Below, one piece after another: positions 13,482-26,721 of a stretch of DNA of 64,000 nt (the stretch's first letter is position 1; each line of letters opens with the position of its first letter). Both the position numbers and the translations under genes were made by a program. Where the stretch lies: assembly GCA_024408105.1 (NCBI GenBank), contig JAKSVG010000001.1:50854-114853 (forward strand), given 5' to 3'. The DNA is from Bacilli bacterium. GTDB lineage: Bacteria; Bacillota_I; Bacilli_A; RFN20; CAG-826. The notes under the pieces are model-generated. The model was not told where the DNA came from. It was given only the letters and a program-made list of their open reading frames with translations, and did not search any database.

Positions 13482-13520
13482 AAGCATATCTTGGTTAACA
13501 TAATATTGATATGCTTTTTT
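13482..13520 (+). terminator. intrinsic terminator after dxs (large loop carrying the dif-like half site)
   Basis: 9-bp perfect stem AAGCATATC/GATATGCTT, 17-nt loop, then a T6 run. Confidence 0.7.
13491..13510 (-). repeat. partial dif-like copy (XerD arm plus core only)
   Basis: TTGGTTAACATAATATTGAT matches TTGGTTAACATAATAGTGAT at 18759-18778 at 19 of 20 positions, in the same orientation. The XerC-arm position is not conserved. It lies in the loop and 3' stem of the dxs terminator. Confidence 0.7.
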
Positions 13521-13540
13521 ATTTTATCTAAAATAATAAT

Positions 13541-14743
13541 ATGTCAAAGATTATTCTCCATATTGATTTGAACCAATTCTTTGTTCGCTGCGAAGAAATT
13601 AAAAATCCTAACCTTATAGGAAAACCAGTTATTATTGGACACGATGGTCGAGGCGGAATTGTTTCAACATGTTCATATGAGGCAAGAAAATTTGGCATCA
13701 AAAGCGGTATGCCAACATTCATGGCTATTAAATTAAATCCAAAAGTGATAATGATTCCAGGCGATTATAAATTTTATTCGTCAATGTCGCGAAAATTTAT
13801 TAATTTTATTAAAACAAAAGCAACGAATATAGAACAAGCCTCAATTGATGAGTGTTATGTTGATATGACAAAAGAATTAAAAGACGTAAAAAATGTTGAG
13901 CAATATCTTTTAGATATGCAAAACGAGTTATATGAAAAAACGGGGTTAAAATGTTCAATAGGCGTAGCTCCCACCAAATTTCTTGCAAAAATGGGGAGCG
14001 ATATGAAAAAACCAATGGGATTAACTATAATTCGCCGAAAAGACATAAGAAAAATGATTTATCCGTTGCCCATTAGTGATTTTTATGGAATTGGTAAGAA
14101 AACTACGCCTAAATTAGAAAAGATTGGAATTAAAACTATCGGTGATTTAGCAATAAGAGTAAATAATGATGACAAAGTCATAAAAAACGAATTAGGCAAA
14201 TTCTTTTTTGCGGTAAAAGATATGATTAATGGACAGAGCAGCGATTATGTAGACTCTGAACCATTTGATCCAAAATCAATTGGTAATAGCCATACGCTTC
14301 CATTTGATACAAATAGCTATAATGATTTGAAAGAAAATTTAGTTATATTGGCCGAGGAAGTATCACAACGAGCAAAAGAAGCAAATAAGGTTGGAACAAC
14401 AGTTCAAGTAGTTCTAAAAGATAACGGATTCAAAGTTATCAATAGATCTATATCATTTAGCAAGCCAACCAACGATTTTGATGTAATCAAATCTTATACA
14501 ATTCAATTGTTAGACAAAAACTACGATAGCGAAAAAATGATTAGGTTAGTAGGAGTAACACTTCAAAATCTAATTAACCCTTCGGAGGTTACTATTCAAA
14601 TGTCTATTTTTGACGATTTTGAGAAGATAAAAGAAGAATGCGCAACAAAGTTGCTCATTTCAGAACTAAATAGAAAAATGAACAAGTCTGTTTTTAAGAC
14701 TGCTGCAGAATTGGAGTCAGAAAAAAGAAATGGAAGTAAATGA
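13541..14743 (+). CDS. dinB: DNA polymerase IV (Y-family)
   Basis: Motifs ILHIDLNQFFVRCE and SIDECYVD, and an HhH region (FYGIGKKT). Confidence 0.92.
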   Translation: MSKIILHIDLNQFFVRCEEIKNPNLIGKPVIIGHDGRGGIVSTCSYEARKFGIKSGMPTFMAIKLNPKVIMIPGDYKFYSSMSRKFINFIKTKATNIEQASIDECYVDMTKELKDVKNVEQYLLDMQNELYEKTGLKCSIGVAPTKFLAKMGSDMKKPMGLTIIRRKDIRKMIYPLPISDFYGIGKKTTPKLEKIGIKTIGDLAIRVNNDDKVIKNELGKFFFAVKDMINGQSSDYVDSEPFDPKSIGNSHTLPFDTNSYNDLKENLVILAEEVSQRAKEANKVGTTVQVVLKDNGFKVINRSISFSKPTNDFDVIKSYTIQLLDKNYDSEKMIRLVGVTLQNLINPSEVTIQMSIFDDFEKIKEECATKLLISELNRKMNKSVFKTAAELESEKRNGSK

Positions 14744-15608
14744 TGCAATCGATTTATTTATCCAATACCTTAGAGTAGAAAAAGGCGTGAGCGAGGATAC
14801 GGTCAAGTCATACTTATATGATTTAAAGCAATTTTTCTTAGCGTTGCCTAAAAAAGATACAGCTGAATTTCTGCCAGTTGATATAGCAGACTTTATTAAA
14901 ATACAAAATAAAAAAATGCTATCAAGTTCTACGGTTTTAAGAAGACTTTCATCGACAAAAAACTTTTATTTATTTTGCCAAAGAGAACATATTATTGATT
15001 TTAATATCAATAAATTTGAAACGCCAAAAGGGATGAAACATCTTCCTATTTCAATATCAGTTGAAGAGGTTGAGAATTTGCTTAATGCACCAAATGAAGA
15101 AAAGCCTGAAGGATTAAGAGATCGTGCAATGCTAGAAACAATGTATTCTAGCGGACTTCGTGTTAGCGAACTTATTATGCTAAAAATATCACAAGTCAAT
15201 TTTGACAAAGGCATCATAAATGTTATCGGTAAAGGAAACAAACAAAGAAAAGTACCAATCGGAGATTTTGCTTTGGATTATGTCCAAAAATATGTTCAGA
15301 CAGCAAGATATAAGAATCCAGGAAAAAATACTCCTTATTTATTTTTAAATAGATATGGTCAACCTATTTCCAGGCAATTCTTTTTCAAACAAGTTAAAAA
15401 ATATGCAGAACAGGTTGGAATAGAAGAAAATATCTCGCCTCATACTTTAAGGCATTGCTTTGCAACGCATCTTTTGGAAAATGGGGCTGAACTTAGAGCG
15501 GTGCAAGAAATGCTCGGACACACAAATATTGCAACAACGCAAATTTATACCAATATTTCAAGCAAGCGCATTATGAGTGCGTATGATTTGTATGTGAAAC
15601 GAAAATAG
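14730..15608 (+). CDS. xerD: tyrosine site-specific recombinase XerD (XerC/XerD family)
   Basis: Catalytic R (GLRVSEL), HTLRHCFATHLL and LGHTNIATTQIYT (H, Y). N-terminal SAM-like domain. It lies next to deoB, as I recall for ripX/xerD in B. subtilis. The XerD-versus-XerC assignment is less certain than the family. Confidence 0.8.
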   Translation: MEVNDAIDLFIQYLRVEKGVSEDTVKSYLYDLKQFFLALPKKDTAEFLPVDIADFIKIQNKKMLSSSTVLRRLSSTKNFYLFCQREHIIDFNINKFETPKGMKHLPISISVEEVENLLNAPNEEKPEGLRDRAMLETMYSSGLRVSELIMLKISQVNFDKGIINVIGKGNKQRKVPIGDFALDYVQKYVQTARYKNPGKNTPYLFLNRYGQPISRQFFFKQVKKYAEQVGIEENISPHTLRHCFATHLLENGAELRAVQEMLGHTNIATTQIYTNISSKRIMSAYDLYVKRK

Positions 15609-15642: not shown

Positions 15643-16836
15643 ATGAAATTTAAAAGAATATTTGTTATTGTAGCAGATTCAGCTGGAATTGGAGAAATGC
15701 CTGATGCTGCCAAATTTGGTGACGCAGGAACAAATACATTTGTTCATACTTCAGAAAAGTGTGGCGGATTAAATGTACCAGTCATGAATTCAATGGGTTT
15801 AGGCGAATTAGCTCCTGTCCTTGGAACAAGCAAAGTTTCTCATCCAAATTCATATTGCATGAGACTAAGAGAAGCAAGTGCTGGAAAAGACACTATGACT
15901 GGACACTGGGAAATGATGGGAATTTACACAACCAAACCATTCCAGACATTTACCGATACAGGTTTTCCTCAAAGTTTAATCGAAGAATTAGAAAAACGCA
16001 CTGGTCACAAAATAATTGGCAACAAAGCCGCAAGTGGAACAGAAATTCTTAAAGAATTAGGCGAAGAACAAAAACGAGATAATTCTTTAATTGTATATAC
16101 ATCCGCTGATAGCGTTCTCCAAATTGCTGCTCATGAAGAAACTACTGGTGTAAAAGAGTTATATAGATGCTGTGATATAGCCCGCGAACTATGTATGAAA
16201 CCCGAATATTTTGTCGGAAGAATCATTGCAAGACCTTTTATTGGTGACAGCGCAGAAACATTTAAACGTACTCCAAATAGACATGATATAGCTGTCAGCC
16301 CAACTGGTACGACTGTTATGAATATTTTGCAAGATAACCATTTTATGGTTAGTTGCGTTGGAAAAATAGGAGACATTTTCAACCAGGTCGGAGTTGTCAA
16401 AACCCAAAAGACTGTGAGCAATATGGATGGAATGGATAAAACAATTGACGAAGCTAAAAATCACGATTTTGAAGGATTGTGCTATGTCAATCTAGTTGAA
16501 TTTGATTCCGAATATGGTCATAGAAGAAACGCACTAGGATATGGAAAAGCATTAGAAGAATTCGATGTTCGCATAGGCGAACTCATAAAAGTTCTACACG
16601 ACGATGACTTACTAATGATTACAGCAGATCACGGAAACGATCCAACCCATACCGGGACAGATCATACAAGGGAAAAAGTTCCTTTACTTGTTTATAGTAA
16701 ATCATTCAAAAACGGAAGATATCTTGATGAAAGATCTACATTCGCAGATATTGGTGGTACAATTCTCAAAAACTTTGGGTTAAAGAAATCAGACAATGAG
16801 ATTGGAGAACCAATCTATGAGTTGTTCGAAGATTAG
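15643..16836 (+). CDS. deoB: phosphopentomutase
   Basis: Motifs RIFVIVADSAGIG, GKDTMTGHWEMMG and TADHGNDPTHTGTDHTRE. GGGAG SD. Confidence 0.95.
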   Translation: MKFKRIFVIVADSAGIGEMPDAAKFGDAGTNTFVHTSEKCGGLNVPVMNSMGLGELAPVLGTSKVSHPNSYCMRLREASAGKDTMTGHWEMMGIYTTKPFQTFTDTGFPQSLIEELEKRTGHKIIGNKAASGTEILKELGEEQKRDNSLIVYTSADSVLQIAAHEETTGVKELYRCCDIARELCMKPEYFVGRIIARPFIGDSAETFKRTPNRHDIAVSPTGTTVMNILQDNHFMVSCVGKIGDIFNQVGVVKTQKTVSNMDGMDKTIDEAKNHDFEGLCYVNLVEFDSEYGHRRNALGYGKALEEFDVRIGELIKVLHDDDLLMITADHGNDPTHTGTDHTREKVPLLVYSKSFKNGRYLDERSTFADIGGTILKNFGLKKSDNEIGEPIYELFED

Positions 16837-17791
16837 AAAAATTTCAATTTTGCCTTTATTGACAATAGCCTTAATTAGTTGTTCTAAAACTAAGCAAAGT
16901 CTCATGTGCGTGTGTCCTAAGGGAGCACCTGCACTTAGTTTTTATAACGTAAATTTCGAAGAAATTGAATTCAGATCAGAACCAACACTAGTTTTATCAG
17001 AATTACAAAAAAATGATTTTGATATGGTTGTTTTCGACTCGATTAATGGATTAAAAAGCTGCGTGAAAAACAAAGCTAACTATGCTTTAGCAAAGCTAAT
17101 TACAGGTGGCAATTTCTATTTAGTAGGAATTGATGTAAAGCCATTAAGCGATGGAAGTTATCCTCTCCCAAAGAGTGATGACATAGTTGTTTCGTTTGGG
17201 CAAAACCTAATACCAGATTTAGTTTATTCAAAACTATGTTCTGACTTTTGGCACATAGAAAATAATGCACATTACGTTAATAGCGTAAACGATGCCTTGG
17301 CCGTATTGAAAAGTGGAAGATATAGTGGTGGAAATGCCAATTACGTATTTATTGCTGAACCAGCATTAACAGCAGCATTAAACGACAAAACATGCGAAAC
17401 ATACGGAAAAGTTAACATAGTTAAAAATATACGTTCAGAATGGAAAATTTATTCTGGCCAAGATGGGTTAGCTCAAGCTGGTATATTCGTGAACAAATCT
17501 TCATATGAAAAGAGAAAAGATGAATTGCATAAATATATTGTTAATGTAGAAAATGCTATTGAAACCGCTATAAACGATCCTTTAAGTGTAAAACACGATA
17601 TGGATTCAAAGCTGAGTCTTAATGAACAAATTGAAAAATACGGGTTTAATTCAAACACAGTTCTTCAAGTCCAAAGTGATAACCGCAATGGATTCGGATT
17701 AGTGGGGAAAAATGAATCAATTGACGTTAATAAATTTTTGGAATACTTAGGACAAAGTCCTATACCAGAGGATTATTTTATTGAAGTATGA
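16817..17791 (+). CDS. lipoprotein, ABC-transporter substrate-binding protein (NMT1/TauA-like)
   Basis: Signal peptide with lipobox (ILPLLTIALISC). The size and periplasmic-binding-protein-like composition fit the call. Its start overlaps the deoB 3' end, and its stop overlaps the permease start. The family assignment is tentative. Confidence 0.6.
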   Translation: MSCSKIRKISILPLLTIALISCSKTKQSLMCVCPKGAPALSFYNVNFEEIEFRSEPTLVLSELQKNDFDMVVFDSINGLKSCVKNKANYALAKLITGGNFYLVGIDVKPLSDGSYPLPKSDDIVVSFGQNLIPDLVYSKLCSDFWHIENNAHYVNSVNDALAVLKSGRYSGGNANYVFIAEPALTAALNDKTCETYGKVNIVKNIRSEWKIYSGQDGLAQAGIFVNKSSYEKRKDELHKYIVNVENAIETAINDPLSVKHDMDSKLSLNEQIEKYGFNSNTVLQVQSDNRNGFGLVGKNESIDVNKFLEYLGQSPIPEDYFIEV

Positions 17792-18561
17792 GAAGAATCA
17801 CAAGATTTTATAAAAATAATCGTATTCTAATTTGGACAATTATCGGAACAGGAACATTGTTTTTACTTTGGTGGATAATTTCATTGCTTGTAAATTCAAC
17901 ATTGTTTCCTGGCCCACAAGTGGTTGTTCCAGAATTTGTGGCGCATTTAGGCAAAGGGGGCACATATCTTGCAATTGGAGGAACATTAATAAGGTTATTA
18001 ATCTCGATTGCTTTAGGTTTTTTCTTTGGAATACTTCTAGGTATATTTGGTGGTCTTTCAGTTGGGTTTAGAGCATTTATGAGACCGTTTATTATTGTTT
18101 TTAGAACAATTCCAACGGCAGCAGTCGTTTTCATTATAGTCGCTTTGCTAAAACCAATGTTTGCACCGACAATTATCGTATTTCTAATTGTGTTCCCAAT
18201 TCTCTATGAATCGGTTGTCAGCGGAATTACAAACGTAGATCAATCAATTGTTGACGCACTAAAAATCGATGGAACAAATGTTAGAAAGGCAGTATTCAAA
18301 ATATATTTGCCATTATCATGGAGTTATATTCTTTTAGGATTGGTATCAAGCATTGGCTTAGGAATGAAAGTTGGAATAATGAGTGAAATATTAGCTGGAA
18401 GCGATTCGGCAAATGGGCTTGGAAAGCTAATTCGTGATGCTGCGACAATTGCTGATATGAAAGGCGTTTTGTCCTATTCGTTAATCGCTATCATATTGAT
18501 TGGGTTAATTGATATAGGAATGTATTTCCTGAAGAAAAAATTAAAAAATTATGCAAGATAA
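17788..18561 (+). CDS. ABC transporter permease (nitrate/sulfonate/taurine TauC/SsuC-like family)
   Basis: 6 TM segments and an EAA-loop-like segment (VDQSIVDALKIDGTNVRKAVFKIYLP). No ATPase gene is adjacent. Followed by a terminator. Confidence 0.8.
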   Translation: MRRITRFYKNNRILIWTIIGTGTLFLLWWIISLLVNSTLFPGPQVVVPEFVAHLGKGGTYLAIGGTLIRLLISIALGFFFGILLGIFGGLSVGFRAFMRPFIIVFRTIPTAAVVFIIVALLKPMFAPTIIVFLIVFPILYESVVSGITNVDQSIVDALKIDGTNVRKAVFKIYLPLSWSYILLGLVSSIGLGMKVGIMSEILAGSDSANGLGKLIRDAATIADMKGVLSYSLIAIILIGLIDIGMYFLKKKLKNYAR

Positions 18562-18563
18562 CC

Positions 18564-18590
18564 AAGCCATTGAAATGTGGCTTTTTTTCT
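18564..18590 (+). terminator. intrinsic terminator after the ABC permease
   Basis: Stem AAGCCAT/GTGGCTT, 6-nt loop, then a T7 run. Confidence 0.8.
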
Positions 18591-18647: not shown

Positions 18648-18760
18648 TTTTTATCCACAAAAATAATTGTTGAAAGATGGTTATTAGATATTTTATGCAA
18701 TCATTTGTTTTCGAAAAATATTCAAAAAAGATTCGATGAATACTTATATTTATACATTTT

Positions 18761-18788
18761 GGTTAACATAATAGTGATTATACGAAGT
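18761..18788 (-). other. dif: dif chromosome dimer resolution site (XerC arm - 6-bp core - XerD arm)
   Basis: The minus strand reads ACTTCGTATAA-TCACTA-TTATGTTAACC. From memory, B. subtilis dif is ACTTCCTAGAA-TATATA-TTATGTAAACT and the E. coli XerD arm is TTATGTTAAAT. The site lies in the convergent gap where gene orientation flips, with xerD 3.2 kb away. Confidence 0.8.
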
Positions 18789-18799
18789 TATATGTTTTT

Positions 18800-18826
18800 A
18801 AGAAAACGTGCTTTTTAGTCAGCACG
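18800..18826 (-). terminator. intrinsic terminator after rsfS
   Basis: The minus strand has CGTGCT-gactaaaa-AGCACG followed by TTTTCTT. Confidence 0.7.
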
Positions 18827-18833
18827 GCTTCTC

Positions 18834-19157
18834 TTACTTAGATTTTAGTAATTCATCAAGACTAATTCTATCGCGTTCTTCTTTCGTAAAGATGTTTACA
18901 ATTACATGATGAGCATCAATTAATATCCAACCAGATTCTGCTTTCCCTTCAATGTGCCCAATGCTTATTTTATTCTTTTCAAATTCATCTTCAATCAATT
19001 CGACAAGCGCTTTTAACTGTCTGTTACTTCCTGCTGTTGCTAAAACATAATAATCAGCGAATGGGGTTTTATCCTTAACATCAATTACTTGAATATTTTC
19101 AGCCTTATGTTCGTTTAAAACTTTTTCGGCTAAAGACACGGTTTTATCTTTTTTCAT
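18834..19157 (-). CDS. rsfS: ribosomal silencing factor RsfS
   Basis: 107 aa with ENIQVIDVKDKTPFADYYVLATAGSNRQLKAL and GWILIDAHHVIVNIF, typical of RsfS/YbeB. Confidence 0.92.
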   Translation of the reverse strand: MKKDKTVSLAEKVLNEHKAENIQVIDVKDKTPFADYYVLATAGSNRQLKALVELIEDEFEKNKISIGHIEGKAESGWILIDAHHVIVNIFTKEERDRISLDELLKSK

Positions 19158-20262
19158 TATTTAACTCCTTTGGTAAATACATCTCAAAACATTTATCAGT
19201 TAATTCATTGGTAATATCTTTGTTGTGCGCCAATAAATATTTTTTATTATCAATTAACGTATCAATGAACCCTTGCTTGTAATTGGCAAGGCTTGAATTA
19301 ATTAGCCATCTAGAATCAAAACCTCTTGTAGGTTCTATTTTATCGCTCGTATAAACAACCATTCCTAATGGACTCATATTCTCGTTGCCTGTGCAATGAT
19401 ACTTGATTGCCTCTAACATTTCTTCATCTTCAATGCTAAATAATTCTTTGGCAAGGTATTCACCAATAAATTGGTGGTATGAAAACGAAGGAAAATTTAC
19501 ATATTCTGGATAATACTTTTTCATCAGCGAAACCATATTCTCATCTTCTTTATAATAAGTTTTGCCAACATCATGAAGTAATCCAGCAAAATAATATTTT
19601 TCTAAGTTAGACAATTTATTGACCTTTGCGATTCTAAGTGAGAGATTAGCAACTTGAATGCAATGTTCTAAACGATCTTTTGGTAAAATCTTTTCTAGTT
19701 TAGAAAAGAAATATAATTTATGTTTTTCAATATAGTCTAAAACTTTTTCAGGAATATCAATAGATTTCATCTCTCTAAAACTAGTCGAGCTTACATCTCC
19801 ACTCTCGAGAAAACTTAAATCAAGCATATGGTATGTCTTTATAACATTTTGATCTAGTTTTACGCTTGGTCGAGAAACAAATGTTATTTGAGCTAGATTA
19901 GCTATTTCCTCAGCGTTTTTCCATTCACTAAATCTATTGACCTGGTCTGCGCCAATTAATAAATACAATTTATCTTTTGGATATTTTTTCTTGAAATGAC
20001 GAACTGTATCAATTGTGTAGTTAATATCAGCATTACTCTTAATTTCAAAATCTGATATGGTAGTTCCACTCGGGCATTGCTTTATAGCCAATTTTAGCAT
20101 AGCTAATCGTTCTTTATATGTCGTTAATGGCGTTTTCCATCTAGGTGATCTAGCAGGAATGAAAATAACATCAGCATTCAACTTTAAAGAGGCAGCTGAC
20201 GCGATTCGCACATGTCCATTATGGATCGGGTCGAATGTTCCACCGAATAGGATATAATTCAT
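19144..20262 (-). CDS. nadD: fusion protein: nicotinate-nucleotide adenylyltransferase (NadD) + HD-domain YqeK (COG1713, Ap4A hydrolase family)
   Basis: The N-terminal half has GGTFDPIHNGH and ISSTxxR-like SSTSFR. The C-terminal half has the HD domain (LEHCIQV, LLHDVGK, YHCTG, SDKIEPTRG). It is a single uninterrupted 372-codon ORF. Confidence 0.9.
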   Translation of the reverse strand: MNYILFGGTFDPIHNGHVRIASAASLKLNADVIFIPARSPRWKTPLTTYKERLAMLKLAIKQCPSGTTISDFEIKSNADINYTIDTVRHFKKKYPKDKLYLLIGADQVNRFSEWKNAEEIANLAQITFVSRPSVKLDQNVIKTYHMLDLSFLESGDVSSTSFREMKSIDIPEKVLDYIEKHKLYFFSKLEKILPKDRLEHCIQVANLSLRIAKVNKLSNLEKYYFAGLLHDVGKTYYKEDENMVSLMKKYYPEYVNFPSFSYHQFIGEYLAKELFSIEDEEMLEAIKYHCTGNENMSPLGMVVYTSDKIEPTRGFDSRWLINSSLANYKQGFIDTLIDNKKYLLAHNKDITNELTDKCFEMYLPKELNNEKR

Positions 20263-22058: not shown

Positions 22059-24677
22059 TTAGAAATCATCATCATCTTCAAATATTGAGATTTGTGTATA
22101 GCCTTTTTCTTCTTCAACTTTTTCTTCGGTTTGATTAGTAGAATTTTCGTTGTCAGATTCAATGGCAATTGGCTCAGTTTTTATTTCCTTTGATTCAATG
22201 TCTTTCGAGATATAATCATCGCCTTCGATGAACGGTATTTGAAGTGATAATTTTTTAGGCATATCGATTGTCATTTTCGCATAACGATCTATCGGTGTAA
22301 CATGATAGTCATCAACAACAATATCAACCACTTCTTTTATGTTGTTTAACACTCTAATGAGTGTTTTTTCACAATTTGTATCAAGTTTTTTAACATAAAT
22401 TAATTCGTGTGGTTCATTCTTAAATGAGCGGAAAACGATAGATGTTTTTCCAAGTCTATTTGTTAGATTTGTATTTGTAATATCATAGATGCGAACACAC
22501 CCTTTATCAGTAAGCAAAATTACCTTGCCTTTTGTATTATCTGCATCATATGTTTTTATAGCTGAAATAGTTGCTTTTCCTAGGTGAGAAAATGCTTTTA
22601 CTCCACCTGATTTCATGCCAGCAGATGGCAGTCCATTTTCGTTAAACATAGAAGAATTGCCATCACTAGTAAATAAGACGATATTAGAATTTCCAGTTGA
22701 GAAAGCAACATCGCATATTTCATCATCTTGAAGCAATTTCATGCACATTAATGGTTTGGAATATCTAATTACAGAGAAATCGCTTAAACGTAAACGTTTA
22801 ATTTGGCCATATTTCGAAACAAGAATAAAGAATAAATCATCTCTAAACTTTTCGATAACGTAGGCGCGCACAATTTTTTCATTAGGATTTAAGGAAATAA
22901 GATAATTTATGTGCTTTCCTTCATCTTTCCATTTATTTTCATTAATTTCGTGAATTGGAATATATAAGAAGTTTCCAACATTAGTAAAACAGATTAAATA
23001 ATCTGTTGTCATAGCCTTTCCAGAATAAATGCAAGCATCGCCATCTTTCATACCTGGCAATGGATTTACTCCACTGCTTCTATATGATTTAATTGATGAA
23101 TATTTAATATATCCATCACGACTAACAGCAAGCATAATTTCTTCCTTTGAAATAAGGTCACGTTTATCAATACTTATAGAGCCTTCTTTTTCAATAATTT
23201 GAGTTTTTCTAGGCTTACCATACTTGCTCGCAATTGCTTTCAAATCGCTTACTAATAAACGATCTAATTTCTTTCTATCTTGAAGTATTCCGTTAAGTGT
23301 GTCGATCGTAGACTCAAGTTGCTTTTTCTCATTGACTAAAGTAGTTAAATCTGTGTTGGACAACTTATAAAGTTGTAACATAACAATTGCTTCGCTTTGT
23401 GGCTCGCTAAAATTAAATTTTTCTTGTATGTTTTTCTTAGCATCAGCCTTGTCTTTACTAGCACGAATTGTATCAACAACATCATCCAAAATTGAAACTG
23501 CTTTAATTAATCCATCAACGACTTCAAGACGTGATTTAGATTTCCTTAAATCATAGTTCGAACGTCTGGTAATAACATCAACTTGATGGTCAATAAATGC
23601 ATCAATAAAATCTAATAAATTTAATGTTTTTGGTCTTCCGTTAACTATTGCAACATTATTTGCTGAGTATGAGGTTCTTAGTCCAGTTTTATTCATTAAA
23701 TAATTATGAATAACTTCAACATTTGCTTCTTTCTTTAAGTCGATTGCAATGCGTAAACCATCTCTTCCTGATTCATCTCTAACTTCAGAAATTCCGGAGA
23801 CGACCTTATCATGAATTAATTTATCAATCTCGTAAACGAGATTTGTTATTGTTGATTTATAAGGAATTTCACTAACAATAATTTGTTTTTCGTTTTTGTT
23901 ATCTACAATTTCAGTTTTAGCAGCAATTTCAATTCTTCCACGCCCAGTCAAATATATATCTTCTAAACCTTTGCTTTTATAGATATATCCACCACTAGGA
24001 AAATCTGGGCCAGGAATAAATTGCATCAAATCAATAGGTTCGACACGAACATGGCCAATTCGATAAATAACTGCATCTATTACTTCGCAAAGATTGTGTG
24101 TTGGTATTTCAGTTGCTAAAGCAACTGCAATTCCCTCGGATCCGTTAACTAAAAGGTTTGGGAATCTAGCAGGCATAACGACTGGTTCAAAATCAGTGTC
24201 ATCAAATGTTAAGGCCATATCAACAGTTTCTTTATCTATATCTCTCACCATTTCTTCAGCTATTTGGCTGAGTCTGGCTTCGGTATAACGATATGCTGCT
24301 GCTGGGTCACCATTTATAGATCCATTGTTACCTTGAAAGTCAATTAATGGATTATTTAATTTCCAATCTTGTGACATTCTCACTAAAGCTTCGTAAATTG
24401 ATGAATCACCATGTGGATGATATTTCCCCATAACTTCGCCGACTGTGTGAGCAGATTTTCGTGTTGGTCGAGTGAAAATATTGCCAGTTTTATACATAGA
24501 GAAGATTATTCTTCTCTGAACAGGTTTTAAACCATCTCTCGCATCAGGTATTGCTCGATCTTGAATAACATATTTTGCATATGTCGCATAACGAGTCGCC
24601 ATTATTTCTTCGACTGTTTCATTATGAATGTTTTCTTGTATTTCAATTTCGACGGGTTCTATTTTTCTTTTTGCCAT
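22059..24677 (-). CDS. parC: DNA topoisomerase IV subunit A (ParC), with a long acidic C-terminal tail
   Basis: Motifs AIPDARDGLKPVQRRI (VQRR rather than the VHRR of GyrA), HPHGDSSIY and the catalytic-Tyr motif AAAYRYTEARL. I saw no GyrA box. It lies downstream of parE and next to plsY, as in other Firmicutes. Confidence 0.85.
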   Translation of the reverse strand: MAKRKIEPVEIEIQENIHNETVEEIMATRYATYAKYVIQDRAIPDARDGLKPVQRRIIFSMYKTGNIFTRPTRKSAHTVGEVMGKYHPHGDSSIYEALVRMSQDWKLNNPLIDFQGNNGSINGDPAAAYRYTEARLSQIAEEMVRDIDKETVDMALTFDDTDFEPVVMPARFPNLLVNGSEGIAVALATEIPTHNLCEVIDAVIYRIGHVRVEPIDLMQFIPGPDFPSGGYIYKSKGLEDIYLTGRGRIEIAAKTEIVDNKNEKQIIVSEIPYKSTITNLVYEIDKLIHDKVVSGISEVRDESGRDGLRIAIDLKKEANVEVIHNYLMNKTGLRTSYSANNVAIVNGRPKTLNLLDFIDAFIDHQVDVITRRSNYDLRKSKSRLEVVDGLIKAVSILDDVVDTIRASKDKADAKKNIQEKFNFSEPQSEAIVMLQLYKLSNTDLTTLVNEKKQLESTIDTLNGILQDRKKLDRLLVSDLKAIASKYGKPRKTQIIEKEGSISIDKRDLISKEEIMLAVSRDGYIKYSSIKSYRSSGVNPLPGMKDGDACIYSGKAMTTDYLICFTNVGNFLYIPIHEINENKWKDEGKHINYLISLNPNEKIVRAYVIEKFRDDLFFILVSKYGQIKRLRLSDFSVIRYSKPLMCMKLLQDDEICDVAFSTGNSNIVLFTSDGNSSMFNENGLPSAGMKSGGVKAFSHLGKATISAIKTYDADNTKGKVILLTDKGCVRIYDITNTNLTNRLGKTSIVFRSFKNEPHELIYVKKLDTNCEKTLIRVLNNIKEVVDIVVDDYHVTPIDRYAKMTIDMPKKLSLQIPFIEGDDYISKDIESKEIKTEPIAIESDNENSTNQTEEKVEEEKGYTQISIFEDDDDF

Positions 24678-24678
24678 A

Positions 24679-26619
24679 TTATTTTACCTCGTCAATGAAT
24701 GAGTCAACTTCGTTGAAGTTAACATTTTCTTCAACCCATTGTCTTCTTATAACTGTGTCATTTCCCATTAAAATCGATATTTCGCGAGCTGCAGAAACAG
24801 GGTCTTCAATAGTGACTTTGCACAATTGTCTTTGGGATGGATCCATTGTGGATTCCCATAATTGATTAGCGTCCATTTCGCCTAGACCTTTATAACGAGA
24901 AATTCTATATCCTGCGCCAATTTCTTTCTTTGCTTTTTCTAAATCAGCTTCATCCCATGCATATCTATAAACTAACTTATGATTCACTTCTTTAGAAACA
25001 CGATATAAAGGTGGCATTGCAACAAACAATTTTCCTTTTAAAATAAGTGGTTTCATATAGTTATAGAAAAATGTTAAAAGCAATGTTTGAATATGAGCAC
25101 CATCTGTATCAGCGTCTGTCATAATAATAACTTTTCCGTAATGTGAATTATCAGCTTTGAAGTCCTCACCAAAACCTGCTCCAATAGTATTAACAATTGT
25201 TGCAAATTCTTCATTTTTGAGCATTTTTTCCGTTGATACGGAATCCGTATTTAAAGGTTTACCACGAAGTGGTAGAATTGCTTGATGTAAATTGTTTCTT
25301 CCTTTTCTAGCGGTTCCTCCAGCAGACTCACCTTCAACAATAAAAAGTTCGTTTTTATCATAATCCTTTGATTGGCATGGAGTTAATTTATCAGACAAAA
25401 TCATTTCAGATTTTGCACGTTTCGTATTTCTTATCTCATCCTTTGCTTTTCTTGCAGCAACACGAGCATTTTGCGCATCAATGCATTTTTTAATTAAGTT
25501 TACAGCAAACTCTTTATTTTCGTTAAGATAATAACTAAAGTTATTATACACAAAGTTACTTACAATAGTTAGTGCCTCAGGCGTTCCAAGTTTTTGCTTT
25601 GTTTGTCCTTCATATTCTAACTTTTGTTCAGGGATCTTTAATGATATAACTGCGGTTAAACCTTCTCTTATATCAGTGCCCTCTAATTTAATTTTGCCTT
25701 TTAAAAGTTGGTTCTCTTCAGCATAATCATTTACTGCTTTCGTGATTCCTGATCTAAATCCGCTTTCGTGAGTACCACCATCTTTTGTTCTTACATTATT
25801 GGCATACGAATAAATATATTCGCCATAATCTCTTGAACAATATTGCATAGCAATATCTATCTTGATCGTGTCTTCTTCGCCAGAAAATGTTAACACTTCC
25901 CCGAGTTGCGATTTTTCTTTGCAAAGATTGGAAACGTATTCTTTAATGCCTTCTTTATAGCAAAACTCAACTTTTTCTCCATTTCTTTCATCAGTAAGAG
26001 CAAAAGTTACGCCTTTTAACAAAAATGCACTTTCTTGAATATGATTGGAAATAATCTCAAATTGAAAATTGGTTGTAGAAAATATTTTTGAATCAGGTTT
26101 GAACCTTACTAAAGTGCCGTGCTTCTTGGTACTACCAAGAACCTCTAGAGGTATAGCAAGTTTACCACCATTTTCAAAACGAAGATGATGGATACTGCCT
26201 GACTTAAAAACAGTAATGTCGCAATACTCACTAAGTGCGTTTGTAACACTTGATCCAACACCATGAAGACCAGCTGAAGAAGCATATACTTTAGATGAGA
26301 ATTTTCCACCACTATGCAGTGTGGAAAAAATTAATTGAACAGCTGGCATACCAGTTTGTTTATGAATATCGACCGGAATACCTCTGCCTTCATCTAAAAC
26401 GGAAACGGAACCATCTTTATGAATAGTTATGGTGATTTTATCACCATATCCGTTTAAAGCTTCGTCAACAGCGTTGTCTATAATTTCCCAAACAAGATGA
26501 TGTAAACCGGTCGAATTTGTTGAACCGATATACATTGCAGGACGTTTTCTAACGCCCGCTAATCCTTCGAGAATTTCGATGTCAGCCGCTGAATAATTAT
26601 TACTTTTCTCTAGTGCCAT
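24679..26619 (-). CDS. parE: DNA topoisomerase IV subunit B (ParE)
   Basis: GHKL ATPase (LHHLVWEIIDNAVDE, GLHGVG) and TOPRIM (EGESAGG, IMTDADTDGAHI). The ATG at 26619 gives an N-terminus of normal length; the ORF-track start is TTG. Confidence 0.85.
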   Translation of the reverse strand: MALEKSNNYSAADIEILEGLAGVRKRPAMYIGSTNSTGLHHLVWEIIDNAVDEALNGYGDKITITIHKDGSVSVLDEGRGIPVDIHKQTGMPAVQLIFSTLHSGGKFSSKVYASSAGLHGVGSSVTNALSEYCDITVFKSGSIHHLRFENGGKLAIPLEVLGSTKKHGTLVRFKPDSKIFSTTNFQFEIISNHIQESAFLLKGVTFALTDERNGEKVEFCYKEGIKEYVSNLCKEKSQLGEVLTFSGEEDTIKIDIAMQYCSRDYGEYIYSYANNVRTKDGGTHESGFRSGITKAVNDYAEENQLLKGKIKLEGTDIREGLTAVISLKIPEQKLEYEGQTKQKLGTPEALTIVSNFVYNNFSYYLNENKEFAVNLIKKCIDAQNARVAARKAKDEIRNTKRAKSEMILSDKLTPCQSKDYDKNELFIVEGESAGGTARKGRNNLHQAILPLRGKPLNTDSVSTEKMLKNEEFATIVNTIGAGFGEDFKADNSHYGKVIIMTDADTDGAHIQTLLLTFFYNYMKPLILKGKLFVAMPPLYRVSKEVNHKLVYRYAWDEADLEKAKKEIGAGYRISRYKGLGEMDANQLWESTMDPSQRQLCKVTIEDPVSAAREISILMGNDTVIRRQWVEENVNFNEVDSFIDEVK

Positions 26620-26721
26620 ATATGTAAAACTCTTCAATTTGTGAAATTGATTATACCAAGAAAAAAGTTGAAAAGTAATCTACTTTTTTAGTATCATTGT
26701 TGAGGTTGTGAGGTTTTGAAC

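Follow-up and report, generated by a model that had tools for sequence, protein, structure and literature searches.

A lone XerD arm conserved at the predicted dinB-xerD promoter, close to dif, in uncultured Bacilli

An 11-nt XerD arm, identical to that of the genome's own dif, stands alone at the predicted promoter of dinB and xerD in the 64-kb stretch of DNA that was analysed (the window), and it keeps this place in most of the related genomes that were compared. The 14-nt block that contains the arm is very probably a functional XerD-recognition sequence, and to judge from the sequence comparison strong purifying selection maintains it at the dinB-xerD promoter, since it is kept in 43 of 51 loci while the neighbouring spacer positions are unconserved. 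Three readings of the copy had been put forward in the initial annotation, and the one that is favoured here is a XerD-only site beside the xerD gene that would act in regulation or titration; such a XerD-only docking site would most likely serve self-regulation and/or the organisation of the terminus. So far XerD-only sites have been known from experiments in B. subtilis and S. aureus, where they act in SMC unloading, and the lineage described here is a different, uncultured one, which contributes comparative evidence for strong long-term selection on a lone XerD arm.

The lone XerD arm and dif in the window

The 20 nucleotides at 13491-13510, TTGGTTAACATAATATTGAT, are identical at 19 of 20 positions to those at 18759-18778, TTGGTTAACATAATAGTGAT, on the same strand and 5268 nt (~5.3 kb) further on. 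The claim of a near-identical copy in the same orientation was therefore reproduced, coordinates included, and shuffling that preserves dinucleotides puts the chance expectation at 0.02: when up to three mismatches are allowed, the 20-mer has only two matches in the 64-kb window, and none of 100 shuffled sequences contained two or more. Within this match lies the lone XerD arm GGTTAACATAA (13493-13503, plus strand), which is identical to the XerD arm of dif at 11/11 positions and to those of E. coli and B. subtilis at 9/11 each (dif sequences from PMC3025954). Together with two T's on its 5' side and one T on its 3' side, the arm forms the conserved 14-nt block TTGGTTAACATAAT (13491-13504, plus strand). 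At the position of the XerC arm (within 13493-13520) the lone site has TATGCTTTTTT, as against TTATACGAAGT in dif, so that of the XerC arm, 6-bp centre and XerD arm by which dif is recognised it holds the XerD arm only. It also lies off the GC-skew switch, the cumulative skew peaking at 18-19 kb and not at 13.5 kb, and off the switch of gene orientation at 18.6-18.8 kb. The match had been described as reaching over most of the core as well. The "core" of the window copy reads TATTGA and that of dif TAGTGA, but the extra matches coincide with the -35 TTGATA of dinB and are absent from relatives; what stood of the claimed extent is the 11-nt XerD arm with its flanks, which are conserved, and not the core. 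Apart from the two known copies, the 11-mer with up to one mismatch occurs in the 64-kb window at chance frequency, and no further lone arm was found on either side of dif in the 18.7 kb (left) and 45 kb (right) that were scanned, the right replichore included.

The second copy belongs to dif (18761-18788, plus strand), which is composed of the XerD arm GGTTAACATAA (18761-18771), the centre TAGTGA (18772-18777) and the XerC arm TTATACGAAGT (18778-18788). Its minus-strand sequence is ACTTCGTATAA-TCACTA-TTATGTTAACC, and the right arm in this orientation is, as we take from established knowledge, the XerD arm. This right arm agrees at 9/11 positions with the E. coli XerD arm TTATGTTAAAT, and each arm of dif agrees at 9/11 with B. 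subtilis dif, ACTTCCTAGAA-TATATA-TTATGTAAACT (both sequences from PMC3025954). The site is located at the cumulative GC-skew maximum (18-19 kb), between convergent operons, and RGTTAACATAA-N6-TTATGCGAAGT is found at the same convergence point in about 50 relatives. Given the skew peak, the convergence of gene orientation and an architecture and position that are kept in about 50 relatives, 18761-18788 is the true dif. A terminator-like hairpin (18807-18826), scored on both strands and with its T-rich tail on the minus strand, lies just downstream of the rsfS 3' end. The sequence TATACGAAGTTAT at 18779-18791, which is made up of the dif XerC arm and two flanking bases, is presumably an exact 13/13 match to the loxP inverted-repeat arm, as the reverse complement of ATAACTTCGTATA; the clade consensus at this place is TTATGCGAAGT, hence the exact match to the loxP arm is limited to a few lineages. 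One relative (L027) has three dif-like sequences within 700 nt, at 15985 (+), 16577 (-) and 16682 (+), two of them in or around a 134-codon ORF, and this trio may reflect a duplication of dif or the integration of an Xer-dependent element.

All genes from xseA through the ABC permease are directed rightward, and from 18834 on rsfS (18834-19157, minus strand), nadD-yqeK and yqeH are directed leftward. The first gene of the operon that follows the lone arm is dinB, encoding DNA polymerase IV (13541-14743, plus strand; NCBIfam NF002492, E = 3.7e-98), and the second is the tyrosine recombinase gene xerD (14730-15608, plus strand), whose product scores 326 bits with the XerD model TIGR02225 (cut-off 329.6) and 295 with the XerC model; its synteny with deoB agrees with Neobacillus, in line with the xerD assignment. 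The reading frames of dinB and xerD overlap by 14 nt in the window and overlap or abut in most relatives, so that both genes would form one operon and the dinB promoter would be the xerD promoter too. Further downstream, all on the plus strand, are deoB (15643-16836), an ORF of 331 aa (16796-17791) that has no Pfam or NCBIfam match and for which the earlier label "binding protein" is putative, an ABC permease gene (17788-18561) and a canonical terminator (18564-18583), which is the probable end of the operon. Homologues of the 331-aa ORF are 25-70% identical in relatives, and the pair formed by this ORF and the permease is inverted or absent in many of them.

On the other side of dif, a single ORF of 372 aa (19144-20262, minus strand) joins NadD (residues 5-184) to a YqeK HD-domain Ap4A hydrolase (191-352), a gene fusion that is kept across the clade. 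Late chromosome-segregation genes are grouped at the terminus, with xerD 3.2 kb left of dif and the topoisomerase IV genes parC and parE (22059-26637, minus strand) at 3.3-7.9 kb on its right; rpoD, dnaG, glyS, dnaK and lepA come next on the same replichore as parC/parE. Neither smc nor scpAB is present among the genes of the 64-kb window, and a search for known RNA families (Rfam) in 11-21 kb gave none at E <= 1.

Conservation of the arm across relatives

Relatives were collected with XerD as a query, one genome per species, which yielded 80 loci, 56 of them from uncultured Bacilli MAGs (rumen, horse and other guts) with a XerD 44-88% identical to the one in the window; gene order was established by tblastn of the window proteins, with about 20 kb covered per locus. 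The arm was counted in the 51 loci that have an intact dinB 5' region, the window included (XerD 50-88% identical). The 12-mer GGTTAACATAAT, with up to one mismatch, is situated just upstream of dinB in 43 of them, and TTGGTTAACATAAT or TTAGTTAACATAAT is present in nearly all dxs-dinB spacers, or, where dinB has a neighbour other than dxs, in the 200 nt before it. In a column profile anchored on the block, information content is high across TTGGTTAACATAAT only and the flanking spacer columns are near background; likewise, the aligned sequences of the window's own subclade do not vary in the block, and the remaining spacer has diverged.

The genomic distribution of the sequence is equally restricted. 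In 1.08 Mb (the window and the 56 loci) the exact 12-mer [GA]GTTAACATAAT occurs 89 times, compared with 1.4 copies predicted by base composition: 39 copies are at the dinB promoter, 35 in dif and 15 elsewhere, all of the latter within 6 kb of dif. The lone site upstream of dinB is always 3.6-7.2 kb from dif. A generic dispersed intergenic repeat without any link to Xer, for which the window holds nothing beyond the two copies, is hardly credible when the 20-mer has two copies in 64 kb and every exact 12-mer in 1.08 Mb is found at dif, at the dinB promoter or at most 6 kb from dif. The suggestion of a small intergenic repeat family was consequently abandoned for this genome on account of its two copies in 64 kb, while some relatives do have small arrays of arms round dif. 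The first base of the arm (G or A) is concordant between lone site and dif in 28 of 40 cases, a figure that is confounded by phylogeny and was not used as evidence.

The arm had been described as embedded in the dxs terminator. In the window an inverted repeat does enclose it: AAGCATATC (13482-13490) and GATATGCTT (13508-13516) flank a 17-nt loop (13491-13507) and are followed by TTTTATTTT (13482-13525 as a whole, plus strand), with UUUUAUUUU directly after the 3' arm of the hairpin. The copy was said to form the loop and a part of the 3' stem, and it indeed occupies the whole 17-nt loop together with the first 3 nt of the 3' arm. Three of the 9 bp of the stem are G-C pairs, and the RNA fold is predicted at -11.2 kcal/mol (z = -3.0 versus shuffles), which makes the hairpin a weak candidate for the dxs terminator. 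The hairpin at 13482-13516 was not called in a scan for consensus terminators, because its 17-nt loop exceeds 8 nt. As a general feature, however, the embedding did not survive the comparison: the hairpin surrounds the arm in the window and in L001 (XerD 88% identical) only, with no conservation or covariation beyond L001, in five relatives (L003, L006, L028, L052, L055) a conventional dxs terminator precedes the block as a separate element, and many have a dxs-dinB spacer of 41-48 nt without a terminator. The arm goes with dinB, also where another gene is located upstream (L020, L031, L033, L036, L039, L040, L045-L047), and for this reason it is assigned to the dinB-xerD promoter and not to the dxs terminator.

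Is the lone arm then the trace of an Xer-exploiting integrative element (IMEX), that is, a degraded second dif that marks one end of a 5.3-kb insertion? A block of genes does lie between a complete and a partial dif-like sequence in direct orientation, and the gene content between deoB and dif is variable among relatives with regard to the presence and orientation of the ABC pair. Yet the order xseA-xseB-dxs-dinB-xerD-deoB-(variable)-dif-rsfS-nadD-yqeH is found almost everywhere, in about 55 genomes; the adjacency of xerD and deoB, for which the initial annotation itself had doubted the scar, extends to Neobacillus bataviensis, and dinB...xerD-deoB is present in a Coprobacillus MAG. Comparison of the interval 13.5-18.8 kb with relatives shows ancestral synteny, and the GC content is 0.32-0.36 throughout, inside and outside of the interval. 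Moreover, the centres of lone site and dif are unrelated in relatives, and the arm is conserved across lineages, unlike a decaying scar. On the ancestral gene order, the flat GC content and the conservation of the arm, an IMEX scar is extremely unlikely and was rejected.

The arm is missing from eight of the 51 loci (L014, L018, L024, L025, L027, L048, L051, L056), and no relocated arm was found upstream of xerD in these relatives. Three of them (L018, L024, L027) have a dinB led by a Shine-Dalgarno (SD) sequence and a separate SD-led xerD promoter without the arm; the lone site appears to be dispensable, since these genomes do without it by means of ordinary SD-led promoters. Among the outgroups (L057-L080; Neobacillus, Coprobacillus, Eubacterium, Clostridia) no convincing arm was seen at xerD promoters in a scan made without outgroup dif sequences. 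In L035, which is without dinB, xerD follows directly on dxs, and its start has no arm. The dif arm and the lone arm of L035 both carry the rare variant GGTTGACATAA, and this common variant suggests that one protein may read both arms. The lone arm in question, TTGGTTGACATAAT, has the same rare G variant as its own dif arm and lies about 2.3 kb to the left of dif (sites 10001 and 12220 (-)).

Predicted promoter and a candidate XerD operator

The predicted sigma-70-type promoter of dinB-xerD (plus strand) comprises a -35 element TTGATA (13506-13511), a 17-nt spacer and a -10 element TAAAAT (13529-13534), and agrees with the consensus at 10 of 12 positions; the ATG at 13541 is placed 6 nt past the -10 and is not preceded by a Shine-Dalgarno sequence. 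In the relatives, a -10-like hexamer was counted at 5/6 or more consensus matches, and GGAG, GAGG or AGGA in the 20 nt upstream was considered SD-like. The -10 ends exactly 6 nt before the dinB start in 30 of the 43 arm-bearing loci, and an SD-like sequence is absent in 42 of the 43. With a -10 that is 6 nt before the ATG and no ribosome-binding site, the dinB mRNA looks leaderless, with its start at or beside the A of ATG.

The distance from the end of the arm to the -10 is 1-25 nt in 42 of 43 relatives and falls into three registers. In the window's subclade the end of the arm is 24-25 nt away from the -10, one base ahead of a separate TTGnnn -35; in the largest group the arm ends 13-14 nt upstream, and TTAACA of the arm itself serves as the -35 at 17-18 nt spacing; in the remaining relatives it ends 1-12 nt upstream, inside the promoter spacer. 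The arm overlaps or abuts the predicted -35 or spacer in 42 of 43 loci, the promoter being a consensus prediction that is backed by conservation. Three registers, all inside the polymerase footprint, argue for more than a promoter hexamer and fit steric occlusion. Palindromes of the 6-3-6 type lie over the -10, between the arm and the dinB ATG, in L010 (8815-8829) and at the corresponding position in over 13 relatives, and also in L002, L003, L005, L006, L028, L052 and L055; one large group has CATTAT-ATA-ATAATG, the sister lineages of the window have TTCTAT-AAA-ATAGAA, and the window's own counterpart is ATTTTA-TC-TAAAAT (13521-13534). They may represent a second operator, or result from TATAAT being nearly palindromic.

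The block may alternatively be a promoter element (a -35 or an upstream element) or the operator of another regulator, e.g., the SOS repressor, its likeness to a XerD arm being coincidental. TTAACA within the block matches the -35 consensus at 5/6 positions and is 17-18 nt away from a TATAAT-like -10 in about 20 relatives, and dinB is damage-regulated in many bacteria, which would favour another regulator. Nevertheless, this explanation is improbable: the conserved run of 14 contiguous positions is far longer than a -35 requires and agrees with the dif XerD arm at 11/11 positions, with the same flanks; the block is unchanged where a separate -35 (TTGATA, TTGCTA or TTGAAT) sits 10-11 nt downstream or where the block is in the spacer; and the same 12-mer recurs solely at or near dif. 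A LexA/Cheo-box operator was considered and rejected, as the block has no GAAC-N4-GTTC symmetry and what would be the right half of a palindrome is unconserved.

The explanation that we prefer is a XerD-only operator. The direct evidence is that the sequence equals the dif arm, is deeply conserved, overlaps the promoter and has no XerC arm; XerD binding at the lone arm, repression and any effect on SMC are what we infer. It is proposed that XerD would dock at the full consensus arm and that no recombination synapse could form for want of a XerC arm; recombination at the lone arm is not expected, because there is no XerC arm and the centre in relatives is not homologous to that of dif. In the window the arm stops 1 nt before the -35, and the body of the recombinase, which normally lies over half of the dif centre, would cover this element, while in most relatives the arm itself would supply the -35 (TTAACA) and in others it would lie in the spacer. 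Free XerD in excess of the capacity of dif would then occupy the non-cooperative lone site, RNA polymerase would be blocked, and transcription of dinB and xerD would go down. We give an even chance to this full scheme, in which the lone arm is a XerD-only site and bound XerD closes a negative feedback by blocking polymerase at the dinB-xerD promoter. Several points weigh against it. The spacer is just 30-90 nt long, so that proximity to the promoter is partly unavoidable and overlap alone is no proof of regulation; the effect of binding in the window could be neutral or even activating, since the arm is there just upstream of the -35 and not on it; and the intragenic arms of L041-L044 show a lone-arm function that is unrelated to promoters.

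These four relatives, which form a subclade, have 4-6 extra exact lone arms within 6 kb of dif, on both sides and in both orientations, and extra arms are found in L053 and L031 as well, which gives 1-6 additional lone arms in each of the six. In L042 they are placed at -6.06, -5.83, -1.01, -0.77, +0.94 and +1.43 kb from dif; recorded positions are 8549, 13602, 13838, 15550 and 16042 in L042, 2406, 2637 and 5882 in L053, and 10615 in L031. Most extra arms are intragenic (dxs, ABC permease, nadD, a small gene). The copies in dxs and nadD encode DYVNQ and DYVNL where orthologues elsewhere have AAISE, SMLDE, DYPRF and GHKHF, and this lack of conservation of the local peptide in other species argues that the DNA motif was selected over the protein. 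Such in-gene arms, imposed on the protein sequence, point to a function of lone arms that is independent of promoters as well, and arrays in which a DNA motif overrides protein near dif support a structural role of XerD-bound terminus DNA.

The same XerD molecule bound 5.3 kb from dif may act in the manner of the XerD-only sites (XDS) of B. subtilis, unloading SMC at the terminus. One may ask if this is the primary function, i.e., if XerD at the lone arm unloads or stalls Smc-ScpAB, or otherwise organises the terminus, and the promoter position is incidental, the dinB promoter being one of the few non-coding stretches beside dif. The distance of always 3.6-7.2 kb to a dif that is at the GC-skew peak, the further arms on both sides of dif in L041-L044 (also L053 and L031), several of which override protein, and the fact that B. 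subtilis and S. aureus have XerD-only sites for which this role is documented all speak for it. However, the window has one lone arm and none on the right replichore, several sites probably being needed for efficient unloading according to commentary on XDS and matS, and a purely positional role would allow drift among spacers, yet the arm is fixed at the dinB promoter in 43 lineages. A primarily positional role is thus rather unlikely, although it is compatible with the XerD-only operator and both could hold. A broader proposal, which we make tentatively and regard as possible though short of even, is that XerD would be a sequence-specific transcription factor that, by way of the lone arm on a leaderless promoter, represses its own operon together with the error-prone polymerase DinB, and that lone arms were multiplied round dif in some lineages, coding sequence included, to give a XerD-bound terminus domain. 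If this is true, the capacity for dimer resolution and for translesion synthesis would be tied to the amount of free XerD.

Comparison with known Xer systems

Attachment scars of IMEX of the CTXphi/VGJphi/TLCphi type (reviewed in PMC5357621) resemble the situation in the window in that a good and an imperfect dif-like site occur in direct orientation. They differ in flanking acquired DNA and in being strain-variable, whereas here the DNA between the sites is ancestral core genome and the "imperfect" site is kept clade-wide. Scans for dif should expect conserved half sites nearby, and these should not be taken for scars of mobile elements.

The closest parallel are the XDS in the terminus of B. 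subtilis and S. aureus, which according to later accounts unload SMC independently of XerC, dif and catalysis (Karaboja et al. 2021, Mol Cell 81:756, via PMC9226527, PMC11840125, PMC10945525 and PMC11894783). Like these sites, as far as such accounts describe them, the lone site is a bona fide XerD arm without a XerC arm in the terminus region, presumed to bind XerD alone and without recombination, and the small arm arrays of L041-L044 flank dif in a similar way. In the definition quoted in PMC9226527, an XDS is composed of a XerD arm, a degenerate centre of 5-6 bp and, from a second XerD arm, the innermost five bp (TTATG). In the window a 5-bp centre is followed by ATATG, 4/5 of this motif, but over the 43 promoter sites the second partial arm is background-like, with three sites at 4/5 and none at 5/5, and the extra in-gene arms are not enriched for it. 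By this quoted definition the second partial arm is missing in the clade, and the lone arms would be true half sites, a variant of XDS rather than XDS proper; what is new in this version is that a single XerD monomer may suffice. In location and copy number, too, the window differs from XDS: the lone site is the sole lone arm in 64 kb, it is on the promoter of the xerD operon, and it is only 5.3 kb from dif, the arms of L041-L044 numbering 4-6.

In haloarchaea, dif-like sequences occur upstream of operons that contain xerA, beside SMC-dependent domain boundaries (PMC11840125). There, as here, an Xer site lies upstream of the recombinase operon, and theirs is linked to chromosome domain structure; unlike the lone arm, the haloarchaeal sites are full inverted-repeat dif-like sequences of an archaeal XerA system, with no half site. 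A recombinase acting as its own repressor is itself not without precedent: Tn3 and gamma-delta resolvase repress their own gene at res, which overlaps the promoter. The XerD operator proposed here would be analogous, as a recombination-type site on the promoter of the recombinase gene. It would differ in that resolvase is a serine recombinase that works at a functional transposon res, and here the site is a chromosomal half site.

Among Xer systems, a similar arrangement is that of difSL, located just upstream of xerS, for which autoregulation of XerS via difSL was speculated (Le Bourgeois et al. 2007, PMC1914069). In streptococci and lactococci, as in the clade described here, the recombinase's site is directly upstream of the recombinase gene at the terminus, but difSL is a complete, functional site of a single recombinase, whereas here a two-arm XerC/XerD dif is accompanied by a separate non-recombinogenic half site. 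The same report states that the classical xerC and xerD are far from dif (PMC1914069); xerD is near dif in this clade. No relevant report of XerD autoregulation was found in a literature search, and the fixed place of the lone arm on the promoter of the xerD operon provides a testable case of classical Xer autoregulation, which had earlier been speculated for XerS only.
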